This document shows positions 2-26,839 of a stretch of DNA of 27,761 nucleotides, piece after piece. The notes beneath the pieces were generated by a model that made no database searches, was not told the DNA's origin, and worked only from the letters and a program-made list of their open reading frames with translations. Source of the DNA: Longimicrobiales bacterium (GTDB lineage Bacteria > Gemmatimonadota > Gemmatimonadetes > Longimicrobiales > Gaopeijiaceae); NCBI GenBank assembly GCA_965197725.1, contig CBDANQ010000044.1:1-27761 (forward strand). The letters run 5' to 3'. The translations under genes and the position numbers were made by a program. How positions within the stretch are numbered: position 1 is the first letter of the stretch; the number at the start of each line of letters is the position of its first letter.

Positions 2-313
2 TTACTGTCCGCCATCAGAAGCCGGGGCGAGATCGACAATCCCGATGAACGAGAAAGGGTGTTGCTGCAACGCCGACAGGAACTCGCTGATGCGGCTCAC
101 GACATCCAACGATCTACCCGACGAACACTCGGTAAGAACTTGGCATCGTGGTCTCTCGGGATCGCAGGCAGCGTCTTGTCAGTGGCCGCTCGTGACCCAC
201 TCGGCTTGGTGCTCACCGCAGCTGGCGTCATTTCCGAGATGGTTCCCAGCGGCCCCAAGAGGGTTAGCGCCTATTCCTACCTGTTCGCAGCCGATCACAC
301 ATTCGGAATGTAG
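2..313 (+). CDS. 3' part of a hypothetical protein entering from the window edge, with a hydrophobic C-terminal region
   Basis: Frame is open from nt 2 (LLSAIRSRGEIDNPDERERVLLQRRQELADAAHD...SAYSYLFAADHTFGM*). It has two glycine-rich hydrophobic stretches and converges on the defence-like locus. Confidence 0.6.
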   Translation, partial: LLSAIRSRGEIDNPDERERVLLQRRQELADAAHDIQRSTRRTLGKNLASWSLGIAGSVLSVAARDPLGLVLTAAGVISEMVPSGPKRVSAYSYLFAADHTFGM

Positions 314-568: not shown

Positions 569-3500
569 TCAGTCGCTGAGCAAATACTGAGTGACTAATG
601 CTCGTGTGATTGCTTGGCCGCGTGCGGAGAGCCGCCTGATGTTTTCCACCGACATCGCTGAGAAGTCAGTTGGGTAGTGGATTACCTCCTCGCGATCCAC
701 CCAGTTGGCGGGTTTAAGAGGTACACGACGGTCAATCTGGCCGAGAGCCGCGTAGATGAAGCCGTCTATGCGTCCGGACTCAGCGTGATCGTGGAGGCGC
801 GCCTTCGTCGCATCTTGAACCTTCCGCATGACCGCAGATACAACCTTCGTCATTCGCTTCGGCCAACTGCGCGGCATCGTCTCGCCAGTAAATTGCCCGG
901 CCCCGGCGTCGCTCGCGATGATGATGTCGGGGTTGTATGCGATTGCGCTGAGTAGGGAATCTCGGCCCGGTTCCATCACGCTGACCCCGAGGTTCTCGAA
1001 GACGCCGCCGTCAGTCACAATGACGCGATCCGTCGAGATTTTCCCCTGTTGCTCGAACGACCGCATCCATTCGAACGGCGGCAGGAACGGAGGATAGGCA
1101 GCCGAGGCCGCCACCGCGTCGGCAACTGGGAGTTCACTCGCGGATGCCCAACCGTATCTCCAGCTTCCGAAGCGTTCGTTGCTCATACGGAACGCGGTCC
1201 CGGTTCGAAGCTCGCACGCGTTGAAGACGATCGACTTGCCTTGGCGCGTGGGCGCATCGCAGTTCTGCGTGCCTACCGCGTCGGCGATGGCGTCGGCGAT
1301 GACGTGTGTGCGCGAGTACCGGCTTCGGATCGGCCAGGAAACGCGTGATACGGCGTCGACAGCGGGGCGGAGTGTGGGAAAGAGTGACCCGGCGAAACTA
1401 GCGATCCATGCTACCGAATCGGTCGCTAGGGTGGGCAGAGTCACAACGAGGAAGTTCCACAACAGCAGCAGAACGTGCGTGGGGTGGAGGAGTTGCTTCA
1501 GTGCGGGCCATACCAAACCGCGACGCAGGAACTTGACTGCGTTGCCGTCGATGTCGGCGAAGGGGGCTTCCGTATAGCCGAACAAACTGGTCATGACCGA
1601 TCCGCCGGAGACACCGGAGATTATATCTACTTCATCAAGGAGCTTGAGGTCTTCGAGCGCGCGTAGAGTGCCGAGATGAAACGCAACGGCGCGTGATCCG
1701 CCTCCGGACAGCGACAACCCGATGGCCTTGTCGAGTGCGGCTACCGGGGGTGGCGTTGTCAAGCCACCGCGGACGTTGATCGCCATTTCGATTCCGGTCC
1801 AGTGTGCGACTAAGTCGCGTTTCTCGAACGCGTATGCTCCCAGTTGCGGTCGCTCTCCAGCGGCATGTCCGACAATTACCATCAACTGATGCGCGCTGTC
1901 CACGTCTGCTGTGGCGAAGATGGTGCCGATGCCCGCGTAATCCGTCGCGCTGGGCTCGGCCCGGCTGACGGGATGGGAGTGCCAGGTTCCAACGTAACGC
2001 ATGATGCGGTGTGTGCGGTCTTTGTAGCCCTGGCACAGGTCGCTGGTGCCCTCCGTTCCGCAGACGAAGAGCTTGGTGGAGAACGTGCTGTCCCGCGGTG
2101 GTCCACTGACGTTGGTGATCCACGCTATCCCGAGGGTCTCGTCGAAGTCGCCGAAGAGCAATCCCCCGGTTTCGTGTTCCTCGGACCGTTCGCGTGCCCC
2201 GGCGTGAATCCAGCCGGTCATGTCCCGCCACGCGTTGGCTGACATGCGGAAGTCGATCCCGTCGGCCACCCAACGAATGTCGGGACGATACCGGATATCG
2301 TGTTGGTCGTGATCGGGCGACTGGGAGAAGAGGAAGCCGCTGGCGGTGTCGCCGGGCTCGGTTAGTCGGTCGGCCAACGCATTCAGTGCTCGGGCGGAAA
2401 GGCTGGCCACGTCGGCATGCGAGGCGACGAACGTTGGATCGGAGCATCCCGGTTCGGGCTGGCGGAGAGCTGTGCTGGCGTCGCTTGTCCAGAAGGCATG
2501 TGCCCAATTGCTCAGCCAAGGTCGATTGAGGGCCGTGAGGCCGAGACGACGAAGCACGTCGAGGGGTCCAGCTTTGTGTCCGAGTGGCGCGAGAACGGCG
2601 ACGGCGTACTGCGCTGTGGGGCTGACCATGATCGCAGCGACGGGGACACGCGGCGGGTGGTCCTTGAGTACGACCTCAAGCTTGCTTCTCACTCGTAGCG
2701 ACGCGGTCGCGTCGATAACGATATCGATGTCGGCGTCCCAGTCTGACCTGTTCAGTGTCTGGGAAATGATATTCTCTGCCTTGGTCGTCACCTTGAGGCC
2801 GGGCGCGACGGCGTGCAGCCGCCGCGCGAGTGCCTCGACCTTGGCGTCGTTGGTATCGATGGCGGAGAAGTTCTGGCGCACCAGTACACCGGGGGTGACG
2901 CGGGCTTGGTCGTAAAGCGTGAGTTCGCCGGCTCCGGCTCGCGCGAGGTGCTCCGCAATGAGGCCGCCGATCGCTCCGCAGCCCCAGAGTGCAACGCGTT
3001 TTCCGTGAAACCAGTCAACGGCCGTGCCCTTGTCTCGGCGCGTAATGATCTCGGGCCGATTTTCAAACACTTGGCACCAACGCACGCGTGCTTCGCTCCG
3101 CCAACTAATCAAGATCTGCCACACGGAGTCGATCAGGGCCTGGATCTGTTCAGGCGTTTCGCGACCCCTGTAGTGATTGCTAATGTCGCAGGCGAAGGAA
3201 GCATCGCGCAGCTTGGTGACGTCAGACGGTTCGATTTCCCAAAACGTGAGGTGTTGTCGTCGCTGAGAGAGGTCGCCGGCGACCCCCCGCGAGGGGGTGC
3301 CGATGCCGACATACAACGGCGCACCTTGGGAGACGCGCTCAGAGGCCAGCATCAGGTGCGCGAGTACGCGACTGCTTGGGACGCCCCTGATTTCAAGGTA
3401 TAGAAGCAGGTGGTGGACGGTTCGGGGATATTCGTACGGGAGTTCGAAGTCCAGCAAGACGGTTGGTGCGAACGAGACATCGTTCGGCACCGTGTAGACC

Positions 3501-3610
3501 GGCTGCCAGGCGTCGACCTCGAGGAGGTGGGGTTTGGTCCGCGTTAGCACGGCGGCGCCGAACCACGGCCAGTGGCTGCGATCCGGCGTGTCGGCGTTTA
3601 CACAGATGGA
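569..3610 (-). pseudogene. C-terminal ~1013 codons of an IS256-interrupted E2-E1(ThiF)-JAB-patatin fusion protein
   Basis: ThiF/E1 motifs KRVALWGCGAIGG, D..VTPGVLVRQ, DATAS and PEPGCSDPTF (Cys at 2444-2446). JAB motifs ETGGLLFG and WHSHPVSRAEPSATD. Patatin motifs LSGGGSRAVAFHLG, GVSGG and DGG. The first ~127 aa of the listed 1140-aa ORF are IS-derived. Confidence 0.9.
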
Positions 3611-5068
3611 GATGGTGTCCCGCTGACAGTTGAAGGTGGTGGCTCCAGAGTAACTCTTGGTTAACCTGCCTTCCTCATTTGGGCAACTGGTTCGTGGTCG
3701 TCGAGGTGGGCTTTGAGCATCCAGAGCTGGTCGAAGCCGATGATGCGGCGGTAGCTCTTCTCGGTCTCCACGAACGAGGCCGCCGCCCATCTGAGGGCCA
3801 TCGCTCCGTTCTTCCAATTCGTCACCCTGCGGGTCTTCTGTCTCACACCCGAGTGGGTGCTGTCGATCAGGTTGGTAGAGCCCAGGCATTTCCTTAGCCG
3901 GGGCGGTAGGCCGAGCCGGTTGATCGTGAACATCTCGCTGAGGCCTTCGCGTAGGCTGGCCGCGGCCGAAGGGTGATCTCGTTCGAGCCATCGGGCGAGC
4001 TGCTCGAGCTTCTGCTCGCCCTCCTTCGCGTCCAGCTTCATCGCTGCCCGGAACACCGCCTTCACCTGAGCGTGCTGATCCTTCGGCAGATGACCCAGCA
4101 CGTTGCGGAGCTTGTGGTTGCGGCAGCGCTGGATGGGGTGACGTTGGCCGAACACCTTCTCGATCGCCTTCCTGAGCGCTTTCGAGCCATCGATCACGAA
4201 CAGCCGCCGCCTGCCCGGGTCCAGGCCGCGCTCGACCAGATCCTCTAGGAGCGCGCTGGTCACCTCGGCGTTCTCACTCGCTCCTTCCCTCACGCCCAGC
4301 ACGTGCTTCTTTCCGTCTGAGTCCACGCCTACCGCAGCAAGCACGTGGTGCGAGCCCATCTGGATCCCGTCCAGGTAGATCACCAGGAGGTCCCACGCAT
4401 CCAGCCGGCGCTCCATCAGCTCCTTCAGCACGCGCTCCGAGGCCTCGACCGTCTCACGGCTCACCGCCGACTTGCTCACCCCGACCGTGTCGGCCATCTC
4501 ACCGATCACACGGCCGTACTTCCGCGTGCTCACCCCCGCCATCAGGACCTCGAGCATCCGATCCGCCACGGCGCCCGGTCTCCGCATCGCTGCGTACGCC
4601 GGCACCTCGACCTCGCCACCCTCCCCGGCGCCCCGGCGCCTGAGCCGTGGCCGCTCCACACGCACCTTCCGGTCCGACAGGTAAACCACACCACCCTGCC
4701 GGCCATACCACACCGTGTCGTCTTCCGCTCGTGACCGACCTGCCTGCTTCACGCCTGCCACACCCTCGGCGCTCATCTCCAGCACCGCTTCGATCGTCGC
4801 TCGTCCCATCACCTGGATGACTTCGGCGATCGCGACCTCCGTCTGCTCCACGAGATCAAGCATCGGAAGCAGAAACTGCCCCTCCCGCTTCAGGAACTCC
4901 CTGATCGCGCGCTTGTCCGCCCGATCCCTTACCTCGTACGTTCTCTTCATCGTGGTGGCTCCGTGTTGGGGGTTTTTCCCTGCCCGATCCTACCTGGATC
5001 GGGTCCCCCGGAGCCACCACTTCTTTTCTCCCCTATCAGGGACCTTCAACTACCGACGGGACAGCTTC
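3611..5068 (-). mobile_element. IS256-family insertion sequence, copy 1 (1458 bp)
   Basis: Imperfect 27-bp terminal IRs (GAAGCTGTCCCGTCGGTAGTTGAAGGT / GATGGTGTCCCGCTGACAGTTGAAGGT). 8-bp direct repeat CAGATGGA at 3603-3610 and 5069-5076. Near-identical to 19426-20883. Confidence 0.95.
3661..4950 (-). CDS. IS256-family (Mutator-like) DDE transposase
   Basis: 429 aa with GVSTRK, YLDG, VIDGSKAL, QRCRNHKLRN and STNLIDS motifs. The catalytic Glu position reads D in NLIDS. Confidence 0.95.
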   Translation of the reverse strand: MKRTYEVRDRADKRAIREFLKREGQFLLPMLDLVEQTEVAIAEVIQVMGRATIEAVLEMSAEGVAGVKQAGRSRAEDDTVWYGRQGGVVYLSDRKVRVERPRLRRRGAGEGGEVEVPAYAAMRRPGAVADRMLEVLMAGVSTRKYGRVIGEMADTVGVSKSAVSRETVEASERVLKELMERRLDAWDLLVIYLDGIQMGSHHVLAAVGVDSDGKKHVLGVREGASENAEVTSALLEDLVERGLDPGRRRLFVIDGSKALRKAIEKVFGQRHPIQRCRNHKLRNVLGHLPKDQHAQVKAVFRAAMKLDAKEGEQKLEQLARWLERDHPSAAASLREGLSEMFTINRLGLPPRLRKCLGSTNLIDSTHSGVRQKTRRVTNWKNGAMALRWAAASFVETEKSYRRIIGFDQLWMLKAHLDDHEPVAQMRKAG

Positions 5069-5535
5069 CAGATGGATGTCGAGGCGACAGTGTAGGCGAT
5101 GGGGGGATGCAGGGGCTCTTCTGGATGACCGAGCTCGTTTCGGGCGCCGCGTCGTAGCCATTCGTCGAGCTGGGCGATGAAACCGAACATGCCCAGGGAC
5201 GGGTTCCACTGGGTCTCGGGGGAGACGTACAGGCACAACCAGTGCCCCCAGTGAACGTGCCCAAAGCCGTGGAAGCGGGTGTGGGCGGTGACCGCACTAG
5301 GGGGGTTGAACGGGAATTCGGCCGGGATCCACAGCGTGATGCCTTCCCGGTCGTGCAGTCGCAGACCGCCTTCGACGTGCTCGTGACCGGTGCAATCGAG
5401 GGTGACGTGGACGACTAACGAGGCACCGGGGTCGGCGCTTTCCTCGACCCCTATAATCCGAACGGGTGATCGATCAGTATCTGCGATCCGTCGCAACTGG
5501 TCGAGTGCGGTGCGCTGGCCTTCACTCAGTGCCAC
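5069..5535 (-). pseudogene. N-terminal prokaryotic E2 (UBC-fold) domain of the IS-split fusion gene
   Basis: IPAEFPFNPP...HVHWGHWLCLY...WNPS...LDEWL fits an E2 fold with a catalytic Cys. The GTG start overlaps the MBL 3' end. Removing the IS and one TSD joins ...VASTSI to CVNADTP in frame. Confidence 0.88.
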
Positions 5536-6292
5536 GACCGAACCCGACAGCCGTCGCGGGCGGGATGGCCGCTCCGCTGGCAGCCTTTAGCGTCTGACTA
5601 ATCGACTTGCTGGATTCGGTCTCGCCGACATACGCGAAGCCGTTCGGGCTGACCTCGAAGATGATGGGCTCGGAGTTCTTCTCGTTCCGATGCTCCTGAG
5701 TGCAGATGAACTCGTTCGGGACGATGCGCTCGTACTGCACCTTCGCCTTGGCGTGCGGCGGGTTGTCGCCCGGATCGTTTCTGGCCGGCACTGGTTCAGA
5801 GCTCGAGACCACGTATCCCGGGTCGAGGGCAGCGTTGCCGAGGTCGCGAACGATGTCGTCCTTCCGCGTCTCGTCCTCCTCTCCGTCATCCTTCCAGTAC
5901 ATGACGGACTTGGAGCAATGATGGGGGGCGAGCAGTGCGTTCCACTGGACGGTCGCGGGCTCGCTGCGGTCAAAGATCCGTCGGATGACGGGATAGCTGA
6001 GGTCACCCATGAGCAGTGCCCGGCCGCAGCCGTTCCCGGTGTAGAGTGAGATTTGGAAGGCTAGGCTGCAGTCGTTGCGGTCGCCGAAGCTGTCGTCCTT
6101 GAACGGCGCGTGCACGAACACCTCGAATACATGGGAGAGATCGTCACCGTCTAGGATCGTGACAGTTTGGCCGGGAATGGTCAGGAACTCCTCGGGGAAA
6201 CCTTCGAAATCGGGTTTTTGCAGCAATTCGTCGTAGCCGATGATACGGATCCGATGACCGCGGCCGGGGTCACCTCCCGCGTCAATGGCCCG
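5522..6292 (-). pseudogene. 5'-truncated ComEC/Rec2-like metallo-beta-lactamase fold protein
   Basis: C-terminal MBL motifs RNDCSL, LLMGD and APHHCS. The frame extends upstream of the listed TTG (RAIDAGGDPGRGHRIRIIGYDELL) to a stop at the IS1595 junction (6293-6295). The N-terminal HxHxDH-type motif is absent. Confidence 0.8.
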
Positions 6293-6426
6293 TCAAGCAC
6301 ATGGACCGCTACCTGGAAGAGCTGGAGTGGCGGTTCAACAACCGGAACAACCCCTACATCTTCCACGACACGCTGGCCCGCATCATGAACACCGATCCGC
6401 TGGAGTACAGAGACCTGGTAGCCTAG
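6292..6426 (+). pseudogene. C-terminal fragment of an IS1595-family (ISXO2-like) transposase
   Basis: Manual translation VKHMDRYLEELEWRFNNRNNPYIFHDTLARIMNTDPLEYRDLVA* matches the KHLxRYLxExxxRFNxR signature. Confidence 0.8.
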
Positions 6427-7639
6427 TGTCACGTCATGCTTGTAGTGTCGTAATATAGATCGTATCTTCTCTGCATCCCCCACGCGGGAGGAATGCAGAT
6501 GAAGAAATACGTCGTGACGCTGCTCGAGGAGGAGCGCGAAGCTCTTGGCGCACTCACATCGAAGGGCAAGCACAGATCCCAGAAAATTCTCAACGCACTG
6601 ATCTTGCTGGGGTGTGATGCGGGCGAGTTTCAGACGGAGCGCTCGACGAATGAAGAGATCGCCCGCGTGCTGAAGATCAGCATGCGGAAGATCGATCGAG
6701 TGAAGAGGCGCTTCGTCGTTGACGGTCTTGAGGTGTGCCTGAACGGGACGAAGGGGAGCCGCGTCTACGCGAAGAAAGCGGACGGGGACCTTGAAGCTCA
6801 TCTGGTGGCGCTGAGTTGCAGTGACCCGCCGGAAGGCTTTGCGAGGTGGTCTCTGAGGTTGTTGGCGGACCAAGTCGTCGAGCTCGGCTACATCGACAGC
6901 GTCTCGCACGAAACCGTCCGTCGCGTTCTAAAAAAAACGAACTCAAGCCCTGGCGGCGGAAGGGATGGGTGATTCCGCCGGAGCACAACAGCAGTTTCGT
7001 CGCTCATATGGAGAGGGTGTTGGACGTCTACAAGCGACCGTTCGATCCCCTGCGTCCCGTGGTCTGCATGGACGAATCTCCCAAGCAACTGATCGCCGAG
7101 ACGAGGGTCCCGATTCCTGGGTTGCCGGGACGGGTGGCCAGACACGACTACGAATACAGGCGCTGCGGTGTATGCACGGTGTTCCTCGCAAGCGAGCCCT
7201 TGGCCGGAAAGCGCATGGTCAGGATCACGGAAAGAAGAACAAAGCGGGACTGGGCCCATTTCCTTGAGGAGATCGCAGACCAGTACGAAAGCGCGGAGAA
7301 GATCACGCTGGTCATGGACAACCTGAATACCCACGTGCCGGGATCGCTGTACGAGGCATTTGCCCCGGACAAAGCCAAGGCGCTATGGGATCGCTTCGAT
7401 TTCGTCTACACCCCGAAGCACGGAAGCTGGCTGAATGTGGCCGAAATCGAGTTGAACGTGCTCAGCACGCAGTGTCTGGACAGGAGAATCGACGACATCA
7501 ACGTGGTCCGACGCGAGGTCGAAGCGTGGCAGTCCTTCCGAGACAACAAGAACGCACGCGTCAATTGGCAGTTCACCACACCCGACGCACGGATCAAGCT
7601 CGCTCGGCTCTATCCGACATTCGATGAGTGACGCGACAC
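6426..7639 (+). mobile_element. IS630-family insertion sequence (~1214 bp) inserted at CTAG
   Basis: Terminal IRs GTGTCACGTCA / TGACGCGACAC, flanked by duplicated TA at 6424-6425 and 7640-7641. Confidence 0.9.
6499..7631 (+). CDS. IS630 transposase, made from HTH and DDE ORFs joined by a -1 frameshift
   Basis: The HTH ORF (RWSLRLLA, SHETVRRVLKK) overlaps the DDE ORF (CMDE, VMDNLNTH, SWLNVAEIE) at the A8 run 6930-6937. SD GGGAGG precedes ATG 6499. Confidence 0.9.
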
Positions 7640-7672
7640 TAGATAGGTTAGCGAAGTTCGGGGCCAACGCGG

Positions 7673-14194: not shown

Positions 14195-14784
14195 CGGAGT
14201 TCACATCGCTGTTGCACGAGGTCTTGGCGTGCCGGATCTGCGAGGCCGAGCTGCCGGCTGGGCCGCGCCCGGTCCTCCAGGTCCATCCTGCAGCGCGAAT
14301 CCTCATCGCCGGCCAGGCACCTGGCAGAAGAGTCCACGAGTCGGGCGTTCCCTTCGACGACCCGAGTGGAGATCGGCTTCGCGAGTGGCTCGGGATCGGT
14401 CGGGAGGTGTTCTACGACGCGCGTGCTATCGCCATTCTGCCCATGGGGTTCTGCTATCCGGGGACGGGCAAGTCCGGCGATCTCCCGCCCCGGCCCGAAT
14501 GCGCTCCGGCCTGGCGACGCCCACTGCTCGACCAGCTCGCGAACGTCCAGCTGACTCTGGTGCTTGGCCGCTACGCCCAAGCATATCACATGAGCCTGGG
14601 TCGCCAATCCCTGACCGAAACCGTGCGAAGCTGGCGAGACTTCTGGCCCTCGACGCTCCCGCTTCCTCACCCGAGTCCGAGGAACCAGGGGTGGTTCAAG
14701 CGGCATCCATGGTTCGAGGAGGAAGTGCTTCCCACGCTGCGGGAACGTGTGTCCGCGCTGCTGGCTACACCGGACGCGGGCTGA
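14191..14784 (+). CDS. Uracil-DNA glycosylase superfamily protein
   Basis: CxxC, LIAGQAPG, PFDDPSGDRLREWLG, GFCYPG, DLPPRPEC and LPHPSPRN motifs. Confidence 0.9.
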   Translation: MTEFTSLLHEVLACRICEAELPAGPRPVLQVHPAARILIAGQAPGRRVHESGVPFDDPSGDRLREWLGIGREVFYDARAIAILPMGFCYPGTGKSGDLPPRPECAPAWRRPLLDQLANVQLTLVLGRYAQAYHMSLGRQSLTETVRSWRDFWPSTLPLPHPSPRNQGWFKRHPWFEEEVLPTLRERVSALLATPDAG

Positions 14785-14813
14785 TCGCAGCGCCGAACGA
14801 GCGTTGATCGGTT

Positions 14814-15875
14814 GGTGGAGGCGGGAGTACGGCGGGATGAAGGTGAGCCAGGCACGGCGCCTGAAGGAGCTCGAGCGCGAGAACGGGCGCCTGAAGCGAG
14901 CAGTGGCGGACTTGACACTGGACAAGCTGATCCTGGAGGAAGCGGCCAGGGGAAACTTCTGAGCCCCGAGCGCCGACGACGTTGTGTGGTGCGTGTACGT
15001 CAGCAGCTCGGGGCGTCGGAGAGGAGAGCGTGCCGGGTGCTCGGGCAGCCACGCACGACCCAGCGCCGGGCGAGGAAAGTGGCGAGTGACGAGGGGGCGC
15101 TCCGAGGTGATATCGTGCGACTCGCGAGTCGATTCGGCCGCTATGGCTACCGACGCGTCACGGACATGCTCCGCATCGAGGGCTGGGGGGTGAAGCACAA
15201 GCGGGTGGAGCGGATCTGGAGGCAGGAGGGGCTGAAGGTTCCGGAGCGGCAGCCGAAGAGAGGTCGGCTGTGGCTCAACGACGGATCGTGCATCCGGCTG
15301 AGGCCGCTGTATCGGGGCCACGTCTGGTCGTACGACTTCGTGGCCTCGAGGACGCACGACGGGCGTGCGCTGAAGCTGCTGACAGTGCTGGACGAGCACA
15401 CGAGGGAGTGCCTGGCGATCGTGGTGGCTCGCAAGATCCGCTCGCACGACGTGCTCGAGGTGCTGGCCGATCTGTTCGTCCGACACGGGCCTCCCGAGTA
15501 TCTGAGGTCGGACAACGGACTGGAGTTCACCGCGAAGCTCGTGCGGTGGTGGTTGGGGCGCGTGGGCGTCGAGATGCTCTTTATCGAGCCGGGCAGCCCG
15601 TGGGAGAACGGCTACAACGAGAGCTTCAACGGCAAGCTCAGGGACGAGCTGTTGAACGGGGAGATCTTCTACTCGTTGGCGGAGGCGGCCGTGCTGGTCG
15701 AGCAATAGAGGCGCGAGTACAATACCGTTCGACCCCACAGCGCCTGCGGCGGCTTTCCCCCGGCCCCTGAGGCGATTAAGCCGTCGCCCTGGTTCCTGAG
15801 GATGCCCGTCCTTCACGGCCCTCCACAGGTGCTGGGACTAACATAGGATGTGGTACCACTCTTGGGGGCAGGTCA
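14814..15875 (+). mobile_element. IS3-family element, 5'-truncated and inactive copy
   Basis: Matches 22559-23620 and lacks the first 208 bp including the left IR. It has TGG>TAG at 15706-15708 and Pro>Leu at 15521. The right end is ...GGGGGCAGGTCA. Confidence 0.93.
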
Positions 15876-19425: not shown

Positions 19426-20883
19426 GAAGCTGTCCCGTCGGTAGTTGAAGGTCCCTGATAGGGGAGAAAAGAAGTGGTGGCTCCGGGGGACCCGATCCAG
19501 GTAGGATCGGGCAGGGAAAAACCCCCAACACGGAGCCACCACGATGAAGAGAACGTACGAGGTAAGGGATCGGGCGGACAAGCGCGCGATCAGGGAGTTC
19601 CTGAAGCGGGAGGGGCAGTTTCTGCTTCCGATGCTTGATCTCGTGGAGCAGACGGAGGTCGCGATCGCCGAAGTCATCCAGGTGATGGGACGAGCGACGA
19701 TCGAAGCGGTGCTGGAGATGAGCGCCGAGGGTGTGGCAGGCGTGAAGCAGGCAGGTCGGTCACGAGCGGAAGACGACACGGTGTGGTATGGCCGGCAGGG
19801 TGGTGTGGTTTACCTGTCGGACCGGAAGGTGCGTGTGGAGCGGCCACGGCTCAGGCGCCGGGGCGCCGGGGAGGGTGGCGAGGTCGAGGTGCCGGCGTAC
19901 GCAGCGATGCGGAGACCGGGCGCCGTGGCGGATCGGATGCTCGAGGTCCTGATGGCGGGGGTGAGCACGCGGAAGTACGGCCGTGTGATCGGTGAGATGG
20001 CCGACACGGTCGGGGTGAGCAAGTCGGCGGTGAGCCGTGAGACGGTCGAGGCCTCGGAGCGCGTGCTGAAGGAGCTGATGGAGCGCCGGCTGGATGCGTG
20101 GGACCTCCTGGTGATCTACCTGGACGGGATCCAGATGGGCTCGCACCACGTACTTGCTGCGGTAGGCGTGGACTCAGACGGAAAGAAGCACGTGCTGGGC
20201 GTGAGGGAAGGAGCGAGTGAGAACGCCGAGGTGACCAGCGCGCTCCTAGAGGATCTGGTCGAGCGCGGCCTGGACCCGGGCAGGCGGCGGCTGTTCGTGA
20301 TCGATGGCTCGAAAGCGCTCAGGAAGGCGATCGAGAAGGTGTTCGGCCAACGTCACCCCATCCAGCGCTGCCGCAACCACAAGCTCCGCAACGTGCTGGG
20401 TCATCTGCCGAAGGATCAGCACGCTCAGGTGAAGGCGGTGTTCCGGGCAGCGATGAAGCTGGACGCGAAGGAGGGCGAGCAGAAGCTCGAGCAGCTCGCC
20501 CGATGGCTCGAACGAGATCACCCTTCGGCCGCGGCCAGCCTACGCGAAGGCCTCAGCGAGATGTTCACGATCAACCGGCTCGGCCTACCGCCCCGGCTAA
20601 GGAAATGCCTGGGCTCTACCAACCTGATCGACAGCACCCACTCGGGTGTGAGACAGAAGACCCGCAGGGTGACGAATTGGAAGAACGGAGCGATGGCCCT
20701 CAGATGGGCGGCGGCCTCGTTCGTGGAGACCGAGAAGAGCTACCGCCGCATCATCGGCTTCGACCAGCTCTGGATGCTCAAAGCCCACCTCGACGACCAC
20801 GAACCAGTTGCCCAAATGAGGAAGGCAGGTTAACCAAGAGTTACTCTGGAGCCACCACCTTCAACTGTCAGCGGGACACTATC
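19426..20883 (+). mobile_element. IS256-family insertion sequence, copy 2 (1458 bp), intergenic
   Basis: Same IRs as copy 1. 8-bp TSD CTAGGGAG at 19418-19425 and 20884-20891. Confidence 0.95.
19544..20833 (+). CDS. IS256-family transposase
   Basis: Protein identical to 3661-4950. Confidence 0.95.
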   Translation: MKRTYEVRDRADKRAIREFLKREGQFLLPMLDLVEQTEVAIAEVIQVMGRATIEAVLEMSAEGVAGVKQAGRSRAEDDTVWYGRQGGVVYLSDRKVRVERPRLRRRGAGEGGEVEVPAYAAMRRPGAVADRMLEVLMAGVSTRKYGRVIGEMADTVGVSKSAVSRETVEASERVLKELMERRLDAWDLLVIYLDGIQMGSHHVLAAVGVDSDGKKHVLGVREGASENAEVTSALLEDLVERGLDPGRRRLFVIDGSKALRKAIEKVFGQRHPIQRCRNHKLRNVLGHLPKDQHAQVKAVFRAAMKLDAKEGEQKLEQLARWLERDHPSAAASLREGLSEMFTINRLGLPPRLRKCLGSTNLIDSTHSGVRQKTRRVTNWKNGAMALRWAAASFVETEKSYRRIIGFDQLWMLKAHLDDHEPVAQMRKAG

Positions 20884-22353: not shown

Positions 22354-23620
22354 CCTGACCCCCTGAAACGAGACCAGGTGCAATGTTAGGATCGACCTGG
22401 TCTGAAGCTTTTCAGCGAGGAGGTCAGGATGGGAAGGAAGCGACACACTCCGGAGCAGAGCATCACTGCACTGCGGGAGGCAGAGGTCGGTCTGGCCCGC
22501 GGCAAATCCGTGAAGCTGATCAGCCGGGAGCTGGGCATCACCGAGCAGACGTACTACCGGTGGAGGCGGGAGTACGGCGGGATGAAGGTGAGCCAGGCAC
22601 GGCGCCTGAAGGAGCTCGAGCGCGAGAACGGGCGCCTGAAGCGAGCAGTGGCGGACTTGACACTGGACAAGCTGATCCTGGAGGAAGCGGCCAGGGGAAA
22701 CTTCTGAGCCCCGAGCGCCGACGACGTTGTGTGGTGCGTGTACGTCAGCAGCTCGGGGCGTCGGAGAGGAGAGCGTGCCGGGTGCTCGGGCAGCCACGCA
22801 CGACCCAGCGCCGGGCGAGGAAAGTGGCGAGTGACGAGGGGGCGCTCCGAGGTGATATCGTGCGACTCGCGAGTCGATTCGGCCGCTATGGCTACCGACG
22901 CGTCACGGACATGCTCCGCATCGAGGGCTGGGGGGTGAAGCACAAGCGGGTGGAGCGGATCTGGAGGCAGGAGGGGCTGAAGGTTCCGGAGCGGCAGCCG
23001 AAGAGAGGTCGGCTGTGGCTCAACGACGGATCGTGCATCCGGCTGAGGCCGCTGTATCGGGGCCACGTCTGGTCGTACGACTTCGTGGCCTCGAGGACGC
23101 ACGACGGGCGTGCGCTGAAGCTGCTGACAGTGCTGGACGAGCACACGAGGGAGTGCCTGGCGATCGTGGTGGCTCGCAAGATCCGCTCGCACGACGTGCT
23201 CGAGGTGCTGGCCGATCTGTTCGTCCGACACGGGCCTCCCGAGTATCTGAGGTCGGACAACGGACCGGAGTTCACCGCGAAGCTCGTGCGGTGGTGGTTG
23301 GGGCGCGTGGGCGTCGAGATGCTCTTTATCGAGCCGGGCAGCCCGTGGGAGAACGGCTACAACGAGAGCTTCAACGGCAAGCTCAGGGACGAGCTGTTGA
23401 ACGGGGAGATCTTCTACTCGTTGGCGGAGGCGGCCGTGCTGGTCGAGCAATGGAGGCGCGAGTACAATACCGTCCGACCCCACAGCGCCTGCGGCGGCTT
23501 TCCCCCGGCCCCTGAGGCGATTAAGCCGTCGCCCTGGTTCCTGAGGATGCCCGTCCTTCACGGCCCTCCACAGGTGCTGGGACTAACATAGGATGTGGTA
23601 CCACTCTTGGGGGCAGGTCA
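22351..23620 (+). mobile_element. IS3-family element, full length (1270 bp)
   Basis: TG...CA ends with IRs TGACCTGACCCC / GGGGGCAGGTCA. No target duplication (GAC versus GGG). Confidence 0.93.
22429..23591 (+). CDS. IS3 transposase OrfAB, via -1 programmed frameshift
   Basis: OrfA 22429-22707 (HTH and leucine zipper), slippery G GGA AAC at 22695-22701, and OrfB with WSYD, SDNGPEF and NGYNESFN DDE motifs. Confidence 0.92.
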
Positions 23621-25065: not shown

Positions 25066-25150
25066 CGGAGGCGGAGGGACTCGAACCCCCAAGGGTGATT
25101 AACCCGCCGCATTTCGAGTGCGGTGCCTTACCAATTAGGACTACGCCTCC
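25066..25150 (-). tRNA. tRNA-Ser(CGA)
   Basis: GGAGGCG/CGCCTCC acceptor stem, anticodon arm CCGCA-CTCGAAA-TGCGG, long variable arm, GGTTCGAGTCC T-loop, discriminator G. CCA is not encoded. Confidence 0.92.
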
Positions 25151-25216
25151 GAACGATCGAAGTAATCGGCCAGATGGACCCAACCTATCATCGGGACCGC
25201 CCGGTGGTCCCACCAA

Positions 25217-25290
25217 TCGGGGCGCCCGGATTTGAACCGGGGACCTCTGCGTCCCGAACGCAGCGCTCTACCGGACTGAGCCACGCCCCG
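25217..25290 (-). tRNA. tRNA-Pro(CGG)
   Basis: CGGGGCG/CGCCCCG acceptor stem, anticodon arm CTGCG-TTCGGGA-CGCAG, GGTTCAAATCC T-loop. CCA is not encoded. Confidence 0.95.
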
Positions 25291-25575: not shown

Positions 25576-25615
25576 TGGTTACCTAAGCCACTGTAAACGT
25601 GTGATTTACCCGACA

Positions 25616-25674
25616 TTGACTTGTCATGCCGTTCCGCTTAGTATCACTCTAAATCTGATAACTGGAGTGATACT
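25616..25674 (+). promoter_or_regulatory. Putative sigma70 promoter of the integrase with an overlapping inverted repeat
   Basis: TTGACT(25616)-N17-TAGTAT(25639). Perfect 10-bp IR AGTATCACTC (25640-25649) / GAGTGATACT (25665-25674). Confidence 0.7.
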
Positions 25675-25678
25675 CTAC

Positions 25679-26839
25679 ATGAGGCGACCGAAGCAACTGA
25701 GCGGTGCGTTCGTAAAGACCGTCACGCAGCCCGGACGGTATGGAGACGGACGCGGCGGGCATGGCCTTTCCCTGCTCGTAAAGCCCACAACTACCGGGCG
25801 CCTGTCAAAGACTTGGTCCCAAAGGCTACAGATTCACGGAAAGGCGGTCAACATCGGGCTCGGTTCCTTCCCAGTGACGACGTTAGCCGACGCCCGGAAG
25901 AAGGCTCTCGCCAACCGCCGGACCGTCGCGCGAGGGGCCGATCCGCTTGGGAGCGGCATACCAACGTTCGCCGAGGCCGTCGACAAGGTGATCGCGATTC
26001 ATCGGGGCTCTTGGAGAGCGGGCAGCAAGAGCGAAGTCCAATGGAGAGCATCACTCCGGGACTACGCGACACCGGGCTTGGGCGACAAGCGCGTAGATCA
26101 GGTCACTACGGCTGACGTGCTGTCCGTCTTGGTCCCGATCTGGAACATCAAGCGCGAGACGGCGCGGCGGGTGCGTCAGCGAGTCGGAGCTGTAATGAAG
26201 TGGGCGGTCGCGAAGGGCTACCGGGAAGACAACCCGGCCGGTGACGCGATCGGCGCGGCGTTACCCCGGCACGGAGGCTCTACCCGGCATTTCCCCGCCC
26301 TGCCGCACAGTCAGGTTAGTTCGGCCTTGGCGATTGTACAAGCTTCCGGGGCGTGGATCGGTACCAAGTTGGCCTTCGAGTTTCTCGTCTTGACAGCTGC
26401 ACGATCCGGCGAGGCTCGCAATGCGCGGTGGGAGGAAATCGACCTGGAGAACGCAACATGGACGGTGCCAGGGGAACGCATGAAAGCTGGCCGGTCGCAC
26501 CGGGTGCCGCTATCGCCGCAGGCGGTCGCCGTGCTCCACACGGCACGTGTGATCGTCGACGGTGGTGCGTTGATCTTCCCGGCCAGCACGGGGCGCGCCC
26601 TGTCCGCCATGACGATGACCAAGCTGGTTCGCGAGCTCGGGATCGAGGCGGTCCCCCACGGATTTCGCGCCAGTTTCCGGGACTGGGCGGCCGAGGAAAC
26701 GGACCATCCTCGCGAGGTCATCGAGGCAGCATTGGCGCATGTGGTCCGGAACAAGGTCGAGGCGGCTTACAGGCGCACCGACCTTTTCGAGCGCCGGCGT
26801 CGGCTCATGGACGACTGGGCAGCCTATCTGGCCGACTGA
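25679..26839 (+). CDS. P4-like tyrosine integrase with arm-DNA-binding domain
   Basis: N-terminal PGRYGDG..GLSLLV...IGLGSFP..TLADAR. Catalytic residues TAARSGE, MKAGRSHRVPL, HGFR, LAH and AY are all intact. Confidence 0.93.
   Translation: MRRPKQLSGAFVKTVTQPGRYGDGRGGHGLSLLVKPTTTGRLSKTWSQRLQIHGKAVNIGLGSFPVTTLADARKKALANRRTVARGADPLGSGIPTFAEAVDKVIAIHRGSWRAGSKSEVQWRASLRDYATPGLGDKRVDQVTTADVLSVLVPIWNIKRETARRVRQRVGAVMKWAVAKGYREDNPAGDAIGAALPRHGGSTRHFPALPHSQVSSALAIVQASGAWIGTKLAFEFLVLTAARSGEARNARWEEIDLENATWTVPGERMKAGRSHRVPLSPQAVAVLHTARVIVDGGALIFPASTGRALSAMTMTKLVRELGIEAVPHGFRASFRDWAAEETDHPREVIEAALAHVVRNKVEAAYRRTDLFERRRRLMDDWAAYLAD

Follow-up and report, generated by a model that had tools for sequence, protein, structure and literature searches.

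Positions 1 to 27,761 of contig CBDANQ010000044.1 (assembly GCA_965197725.1, Longimicrobiales bacterium), referred to here as the window, contain at 569-5535 a gene in which ubiquitin-type conjugation enzymes (E2, E1 and a JAB peptidase) are joined to a patatin-like phospholipase, and which is interrupted by an insertion sequence (IS). This gene and the metallo-β-lactamase (MBL)-fold gene ahead of it almost certainly belong to a branch of the 6A-MBL anti-phage system that carries a patatin and whose intact relatives consist of two genes, the first encoding the MBL and the second an E2-E1-JAB-patatin fusion. An MBL gene was located directly ahead of the fusion gene at every full-length locus with upstream DNA, and E2, E1 and JAB reside on one polypeptide in that order, as 6A-MBL requires. 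Five fused proteins scored 353-370 bits against the NCBIfam model NF058523 (cut-off 320), and two partner MBLs scored 287 and 293 bits against NF058524 (cut-off 220), whereas the broken pieces from the window scored 282 and 151, respectively, both below these cut-offs. The E1-E2 and JAB models of PADLOC were matched by the window fusion itself. An earlier note, made from the sequence alone, had tied the fusion to an MBL and to 6A-MBL, and both the adjacent MBL gene and the scores of the intact relatives agree with that assignment. The two-gene operon of an MBL and an E2-E1-JAB protein is type 6a of Iyer, Burroughs and Aravind 2006 (PMC1779556), in whose main text the words 'patatin' and 'lipase' do not occur, and a passage of PMC13276650 credits 6A-MBL to van den Berg et al. 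2024.

The element that splits the fusion gene is a 1458-bp member of the IS256 family (3611-5068, minus strand), with 27-nt imperfect terminal inverted repeats at its ends (3611-3637 and 5042-5068) and a Mutator-family transposase encoded at 3661-4950 (PF00872, E 1e-39). It is bounded on both sides by CAGATGGA, an 8-bp target-site duplication with its left copy at 3603-3610 and its right copy at 5069-5076. Excision of the element and one repeat restored a minus-strand frame from 5535 to 569 of 3501 nt, encoding 1166 aa with a lone terminal stop, as the earlier note had proposed. Two further results confirmed this reconstruction. In an alignment with the intact 1166-aa relative P0373, the 5' piece corresponded to residues 1-153 (89% identity) and the 3' piece to residues 154-1166 (95% identity), each as a single gap-free block, and in public contigs of close relatives the site was empty, with 3602 joined to 5069 and exactly 1466 nt skipped (four out of four runs, from three samples).

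The predicted order of E2, E1, JAB and patatin with intact catalytic motifs was upheld by the motifs of the rebuilt frame, which run HWLCLY, GCGAIG, PGC, ETGG, HSH, GGGSR, GVSGG and DGG, and by Pfam domains above cut-off, namely Prok-E2_A in the 5' piece and ThiF, Prok-JAB and Patatin in the 3' piece. All of these lie on the minus strand. The 5' piece (5077-5535) begins with a GTG start that overlaps the MBL stop by 14 nt and contains the E2 catalytic Cys codon at 5233-5235. The 1013-aa 3' piece (569-3610) comprises a linker, E1, JAB, patatin and the stop. Within it, the E1 part at 2444-3001 runs from the ThiF adenylation domain (Pfam match 2675-3001) to the predicted catalytic Cys (PGC, codon 2444-2446) and has a weak sequence match to the Cap2 structures 7TSQ and 7TO3. 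The JAB/JAMM peptidase core (E...HSH...S..D) is located at 1928-2194, and the patatin-like phospholipase domain, with GGGSR, GxSGG and DGG motifs and an amphipathic helical insert, occupies 569-1726.

Intact homologues with the same architecture and without an IS were sought, and at least 214 distinct full-length fusions were found. A search with the 3' piece matched 390 proteins among 8000 scored candidates, and the best 120 of these were mostly 1160-1180 aa long with all four Pfam domains present. When a separate sister patatin was compared with longer proteins, 894 matches were obtained, the best 120 of which were nearly all E2-E1-JAB-patatin fusions; the names of the matches came from Verrucomicrobiota and Planctomycetota and included a fused copy from cultured Stieleria neptunia (WP_145388357.1). 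In the set of 214 listed proteins (at least 1100 aa, 36-100% identity to P0004), E2 His93 and Cys101, the E1 glycine motif, E1 Cys542, JAB Glu633, His697, His699, Ser707 and Asp710, and patatin Ser821 and Asp1020 were invariant in 214/214. Named genome records were from Gammaproteobacteria, Alphaproteobacteria and Vicinamibacterales, and in the window's own family the ligase model was matched in 8 of 70 genomes. A stop-loss or assembly artefact was ruled out by the 214 listed full-length fusions, the intact P0373 alignment and the empty-site contigs. The four-domain fusion, which the earlier note could not place among characterised systems, is real and conserved, but it is a variant of the named 6A-MBL system.

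No CD-NTase or cyclase was detected with the PADLOC cyclase models (E 1e-6) among 136 flanking ORFs (open reading frames) of 20 loci, which remained from 148 picked by a greedy script after 12 from two near-duplicate loci were dropped. The earlier note had seen no such gene near the fusion and had left room for a CD-NTase upstream of intact loci; none of the 136 encoded one, and no cyclase model was matched that would indicate the pyrimidine cyclase PycC. SMODS had no match in the window's own genome, the assembly of which is 89% complete. For the loci and the genome screened, ordinary cyclic-oligonucleotide-based anti-phage signalling (CBASS) and Pycsar were rejected on these grounds. No conserved small gene for a ubiquitin-like modifier was seen in the loci, in a screen that covered ORFs of at least 90 aa. 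Flanking genes encoded restriction, DrmD/BrxH-like, ZorD-like, IetA and capH/capP proteins. Pairs of capH/capP-like or ImmA/IrrE and helix-turn-helix (HTH) genes were positioned divergently upstream at L014:3709-4643, L023:2823-4632, L066, L095 and L096, an arrangement similar to that of CBASS operons, and WYL genes were present at loci L067 and L097.

The branch can be recognised by the MBL C-terminus, which was xGFG followed by 3-4 residues in 119 of 120 listed close MBL relatives. In a wider alignment the glycine of GFG fell in register with YG, PRAG and xHG ends, matching the glycine that closes the PRAG and xHG proteins; the predicted model showed disorder over the last 30 residues. This near-terminal glycine is the likely conjugation site. 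In the E2-E1-JAB tree, the 40 rows of GFG/YG loci grouped into a single branch with full support, and patatin was present in all of them. Patatin was present in 26/26 assessable de-duplicated GFG/YG loci (L064 and L065 scored from annotation and not by script; five further loci had no downstream DNA), as a fusion in 18 and as a separate gene in eight, so that neither is patatin always separate, as the earlier note had allowed for, nor is the fusion obligatory. Many GFG/YG loci were retrieved with patatin-containing queries, and the subsets drawn by the 6A-MBL models alone are unbiased in this respect; seven out of seven loci of the branch drawn in this way were fused. Among randomly drawn PRAG/xHG loci, patatin was directly downstream in one of ten, and patatin pieces were found near two more (L057 and L081). 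On plasmids, the MBL matched 279 records, and the seven with at least 43% identity all had patatin as a separate gene.

Separate patatin genes mostly overlap the upstream gene at their stop/start codons, and their occurrence in sister loci in this form indicates that the single chain is not essential. They occupied at least two places in the tree. Natural three-gene loci are encoded by Rhodococcus pyridinivorans (WP_252174513/12/11) and Ruegeria (WP_223118687/88/89). Distances in the E2-E1-JAB and patatin trees were correlated (Spearman 0.84, 43 rows, where kin share history). In a 26-row tree, from which 16 of the 43 paired rows were omitted by hand together with the long-branch L058, the fused and separate states needed only two changes, one gain and one later split. 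Overall the trees required two to three such changes, with a soil/sediment group of separate genes nested in fused forms, although the nesting branches had moderate support (81-94, unstarred). One old fusion with a later split therefore fits the trees with moderate support, and several independent fusions are disfavoured by the small number of changes.

Structure prediction was utilized to compare the partner enzymes with solved folds. For the MBL model (pLDDT 85), the closest solved fold was the ComEC nuclease domain 9IC4, followed by the phosphocholine esterase Pce, with NAPE-PLD among the lower matches; profile matches to Avs1a, LmuA and RTasMBL were weak. The model of a patatin from a separate sister gene (pLDDT 90) was about equally close to PlpD, CapE, CapV, plant patatin and cPLA2 (Z 20-24, 13-22% identity), and its matches, which include secreted effectors, contained the protein-bound patatin VipD-Rab5 (4KYI). 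A sequence search found no solved structure for either the MBL or the patatin family. Prediction of a complex between a separate MBL and a separate patatin (L021, with alignments) gave a score of 0.00 and was used neither way.

The patatin clade is linked to conjugation genes. On plasmids, 15 out of 17 matches to the clade lay directly behind E2/E1/JAB genes (three of the matches are near-identical Rhodococcus plasmids and two are from one Bradyrhizobium strain); of the two weakest matches, one was beside a divergent ThiF operon and the weakest was in an unrelated setting. Among the 15 is the Mesorhizobium sp. AR10 plasmid NZ_CP080523.1, which at L070:1264-6170 encodes a 57-aa peptide ending in LGGEY, an E2, a Phd/YefM-E2-like fusion, an E1, a JAB, an MBL and a patatin. 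Its patatin was 74% identical to a 6A-MBL patatin, whereas its E2, E1 and JAB are separate genes, unlike the 6A-MBL build, and its ComEC-type MBL is without a glycine tail. Apart from the Phd domain, no NCBIfam system model was matched by this operon at cut-off, and its JAB matched its own plasmid only; it is apparently an unnamed conjugation operon. Depending on the locus, the slot behind E2-E1-JAB held a patatin, a second MBL or a membrane-type protein, and in this exchangeability it resembles CBASS effector slots. A second, shorter ComEC-type MBL often followed 6A-MBL loci (L007:8820-10814, L002:11866-12732, L072:3587-5007, L078 and L079), paired in L007 with a second patatin and in L072 with a membrane-type protein. 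Two single records, possibly chimeras, join this patatin clade to other domains, a Ser/Thr kinase in P0215 and a terminase-like ATPase domain in P0170.

The branch shares with 6A-MBL an MBL gene followed by a single-chain E2-E1-JAB, a conserved near-terminal MBL glycine and the lack of any visible ubiquitin-like or cyclase gene. It differs in that a patatin with intact catalytic residues is fused after JAB or encoded by a third gene, and in its NF058523 scores, which were about 350-370 bits versus 530-700 for randomly drawn two-gene loci and mark a separate branch. The MBL glycine of the branch is, in addition, usually masked by a GFG-xxxx tail, and JAB would for this reason also be a maturase. 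As in type II CBASS, the E2-E1 and JAB domains are homologous to Cap2 and Cap3 with catalytic residues kept, the partner has a patatin fold, and the probable substrate is not ubiquitin but an enzyme whose C-terminal tail is flexible; here, however, an MBL takes the place of the CD-NTase, of which none was found, JAB and patatin are on the ligase chain, and the patatin appears to lie outside the CapV and CapE sequence families (13-16% identity in fold matches). The ComEC-like MBL fold and an HPDxDH-type motif are shared with the protease-gated MBL nucleases (HamM, Avs1a and the Lamassu/DRT MBL), but there is no trypsin-like or caspase partner, and control is apparently exerted via C-terminal conjugation. 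E1, E2 and JAB enzymes are likewise found in Bil/Bub, where, according to a passage of PMC11601596, JAB unmasks a C-terminal glycine; in the present branch E1 and E2 are fused, no ubiquitin-like gene was seen, and the catalytic cysteines are kept, whereas Bub uses serine.

The reading that we rank first, with somewhat less than even confidence, is a relay in which conjugation of the MBL would activate it, and the MBL product would switch on the lipase and kill the infected cell. JAB would trim the short tail past the MBL GFG and expose a C-terminal glycine. Judged from homology and the intact residues, E1 would adenylate this glycine and transfer the MBL to the E1 Cys, the E2 Cys and finally a target amine in a Cap2-like manner, and JAB would undo the conjugation in uninfected cells. 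On infection conjugation would prevail, and the ComEC-like MBL phosphodiesterase would turn active. In the least certain steps, its product, probably a short or cyclic nucleotide, would activate the patatin, which would hydrolyse membrane lipid and abort the infection by the logic of type II CBASS, with the MBL replacing the cyclase. The fusion would mainly provide co-inheritance and stoichiometry. This relay was placed first on three counts: the operon is laid out like that of type II CBASS, what fills the accessory slot varies between loci, and a patatin comes after the MBL in operons of different architecture. The disordered MBL tail resembles the CD-NTase tail handled by Cap2 and Cap3, which passages of 10.1101/2022.03.31.486616 describe as adenylated by Cap2 and cleaved by Cap3, and MBL pathways are counted in part of PMC11601596 among those conjugating their 'signaling enzymes'.

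Several results weigh against the relay. Related defence MBLs are described in passages of PMC12799240 and PMC12642450 as gated, DNA-degrading killers themselves, which makes a relay dispensable. The lipase-ligase fusion in most of the branch is not accounted for by a diffusible signal. The patatin reached only E 0.006 against the PADLOC CBASS phospholipase models and by profile is not a member of a CBASS effector family, and nine of the ten randomly drawn PRAG/xHG loci were without patatin directly downstream. Finally, in the window's clade the MBL tail after GFG overlaps the start of the next gene and could be partly a by-product of that overlap.

The dominance and age of the fusion in the branch (two changes only in the 26-row tree), the overlapping stop/start codons of most separate forms and the VipD-Rab5 match are consistent with physical gating, a possibility that we consider doubtful but worth keeping in mind. 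Control of the lipase through conjugation was the idea of the earlier note. The ligase chain would keep the patatin inactive until contact activates it: the MBL, once loaded onto or joined to either the E2-E1 scaffold or the patatin, would cluster the lipase, and MBL catalysis would serve as a parallel killing arm. ExoU, for comparison, is activated by ubiquitin. A fixed interface is hard to reconcile with the close patatin that moved to an operon with a different E1, E2 and MBL, and with separate patatins in more than one part of the tree. It is less probable still that the patatin is an independent passenger, an additional effector that a phage factor triggers directly and that is merely co-expressed or fused with 6A-MBL. 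The nine patatin-free loci outside the branch and the fusions of the clade to a kinase and a terminase-like domain would suit a passenger, but patatin was kept in 26/26 loci of a deep branch, and among its plasmid matches only the weakest lay away from E2/E1/JAB genes or a ThiF operon.

Conjugation to a lipid appears similarly unlikely. Here an ATG7/ATG3-like E1-E2 would join the MBL to a membrane lipid in the style of ATG8, and the patatin would remodel or release the anchor, or open a phage-made vesicle, giving the MBL nuclease access to phage DNA while sparing the cell. Passages of 10.1101/2022.03.31.486616 liken Cap2 to ATG7 and ATG3/ATG10, with a target then unknown, and part of 10.1101/2025.09.30.679545 lists 6A-MBL among jumbo-phage defences, other systems of which target the vesicle formed early in infection. 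The accessory genes are directed at membranes, and Pce and NAPE-PLD were among the lower MBL fold matches, but these matches reflect the common MBL fold, the sequence gives no sign of a lipid target, and the branch spans many phyla. The fuller version, an ATG8-like immune module in which one chain lipidates the nuclease onto the host inner membrane or jumbo-phage vesicle and, through its phospholipase domain, opens this membrane or modifies the anchor, is given an equally low chance; if true, conjugation, deconjugation and lipid hydrolysis would all be run by one enzyme, and the same patatin clade in the Mesorhizobium operon would make patatin a general partner of bacterial conjugation systems. 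A role outside defence, as a housekeeping or host-directed lipase-ubiquitin enzyme, or an artefact of assembly or stop loss, is very improbable. The nearest relatives are found in IS-rich genomes of uncultured organisms, and patatin folds include secreted effectors, but the 6A-MBL cut-offs were passed, at least 214 independent full-length sequences and the cultured Stieleria neptunia copy exist, the spread in the own family is patchy, and the sites include plasmids and defence islands.

No description of patatin with 6A-MBL was found in the literature searched (main texts; key 6A-MBL and MBL-operon papers were outside the search). Ledvina 2023 is said to survey MBL-group operons and may list phospholipase effectors; if so, the three-gene form would be known and the single chain would be the new part. 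The targets of bacterial E2-E1 conjugation and the anti-phage action of 6A-MBL appear to be open questions in the literature searched. In this branch the effector is evident and its action, lipid hydrolysis and cell lysis, is simple to read out, and with two genes and six mutable active sites the order of events should be resolvable by epistasis. Study of the branch would reveal whether a system that lacks a cyclase relies on an MBL as its signal enzyme, controls a lipase through conjugation or attaches a nuclease to lipid. The intact relatives, and not the dead copy in the window, would be useful for such work.

In the window the MBL gene is reduced to its 3' two-thirds (5522-6289, minus strand; end VGFG-RGTE), with the first 129 codons and the HPDxDH metal motif gone, a truncation that was absent from the earlier note. 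Residues 1-129 of 384 were not found anywhere in the 89%-complete assembly, in which no second copy of the fusion/MBL system was found either. The lost start is replaced by a transposase 3' tail at the break (6292-6426, plus strand; a partial second copy is on contig C57) and an IS630-like element upstream of the break (6423-7642, plus strand), with HTH and DDE_3 in two frames. The tail matched no Pfam or NCBIfam model, and we take it to be IS1595-like from its motif. From their sequences, the fusion gene and the MBL gene are both dead, inactivated by insertion sequences. None of the sequencing runs listed for the locus was an RNA run. System copies at L014/L037, L062, L063, L068 and L092 were likewise frameshifted or IS-disrupted, which suggests frequent loss of the system, although some frameshifts are possibly sequencing errors.

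A second IS256 copy at 19426-20883 was 99.9% identical (two differences) to the element at 3611-5068, and the genome carries more than 20 related full-length copies. Two IS3-like copies are also located in the window (14760-15816 and 22383-23591), and the genome-wide picture is one of a large IS expansion. The contig start cuts a convergent ORF, of which the C-terminal end, with a hydrophobic hairpin, remains at 2-313 (plus strand) and had no Pfam or PADLOC match. A tyrosine integrase-like ORF is located at 25601-26839 (plus strand), beside a tRNA-like sequence near 25150-25230.

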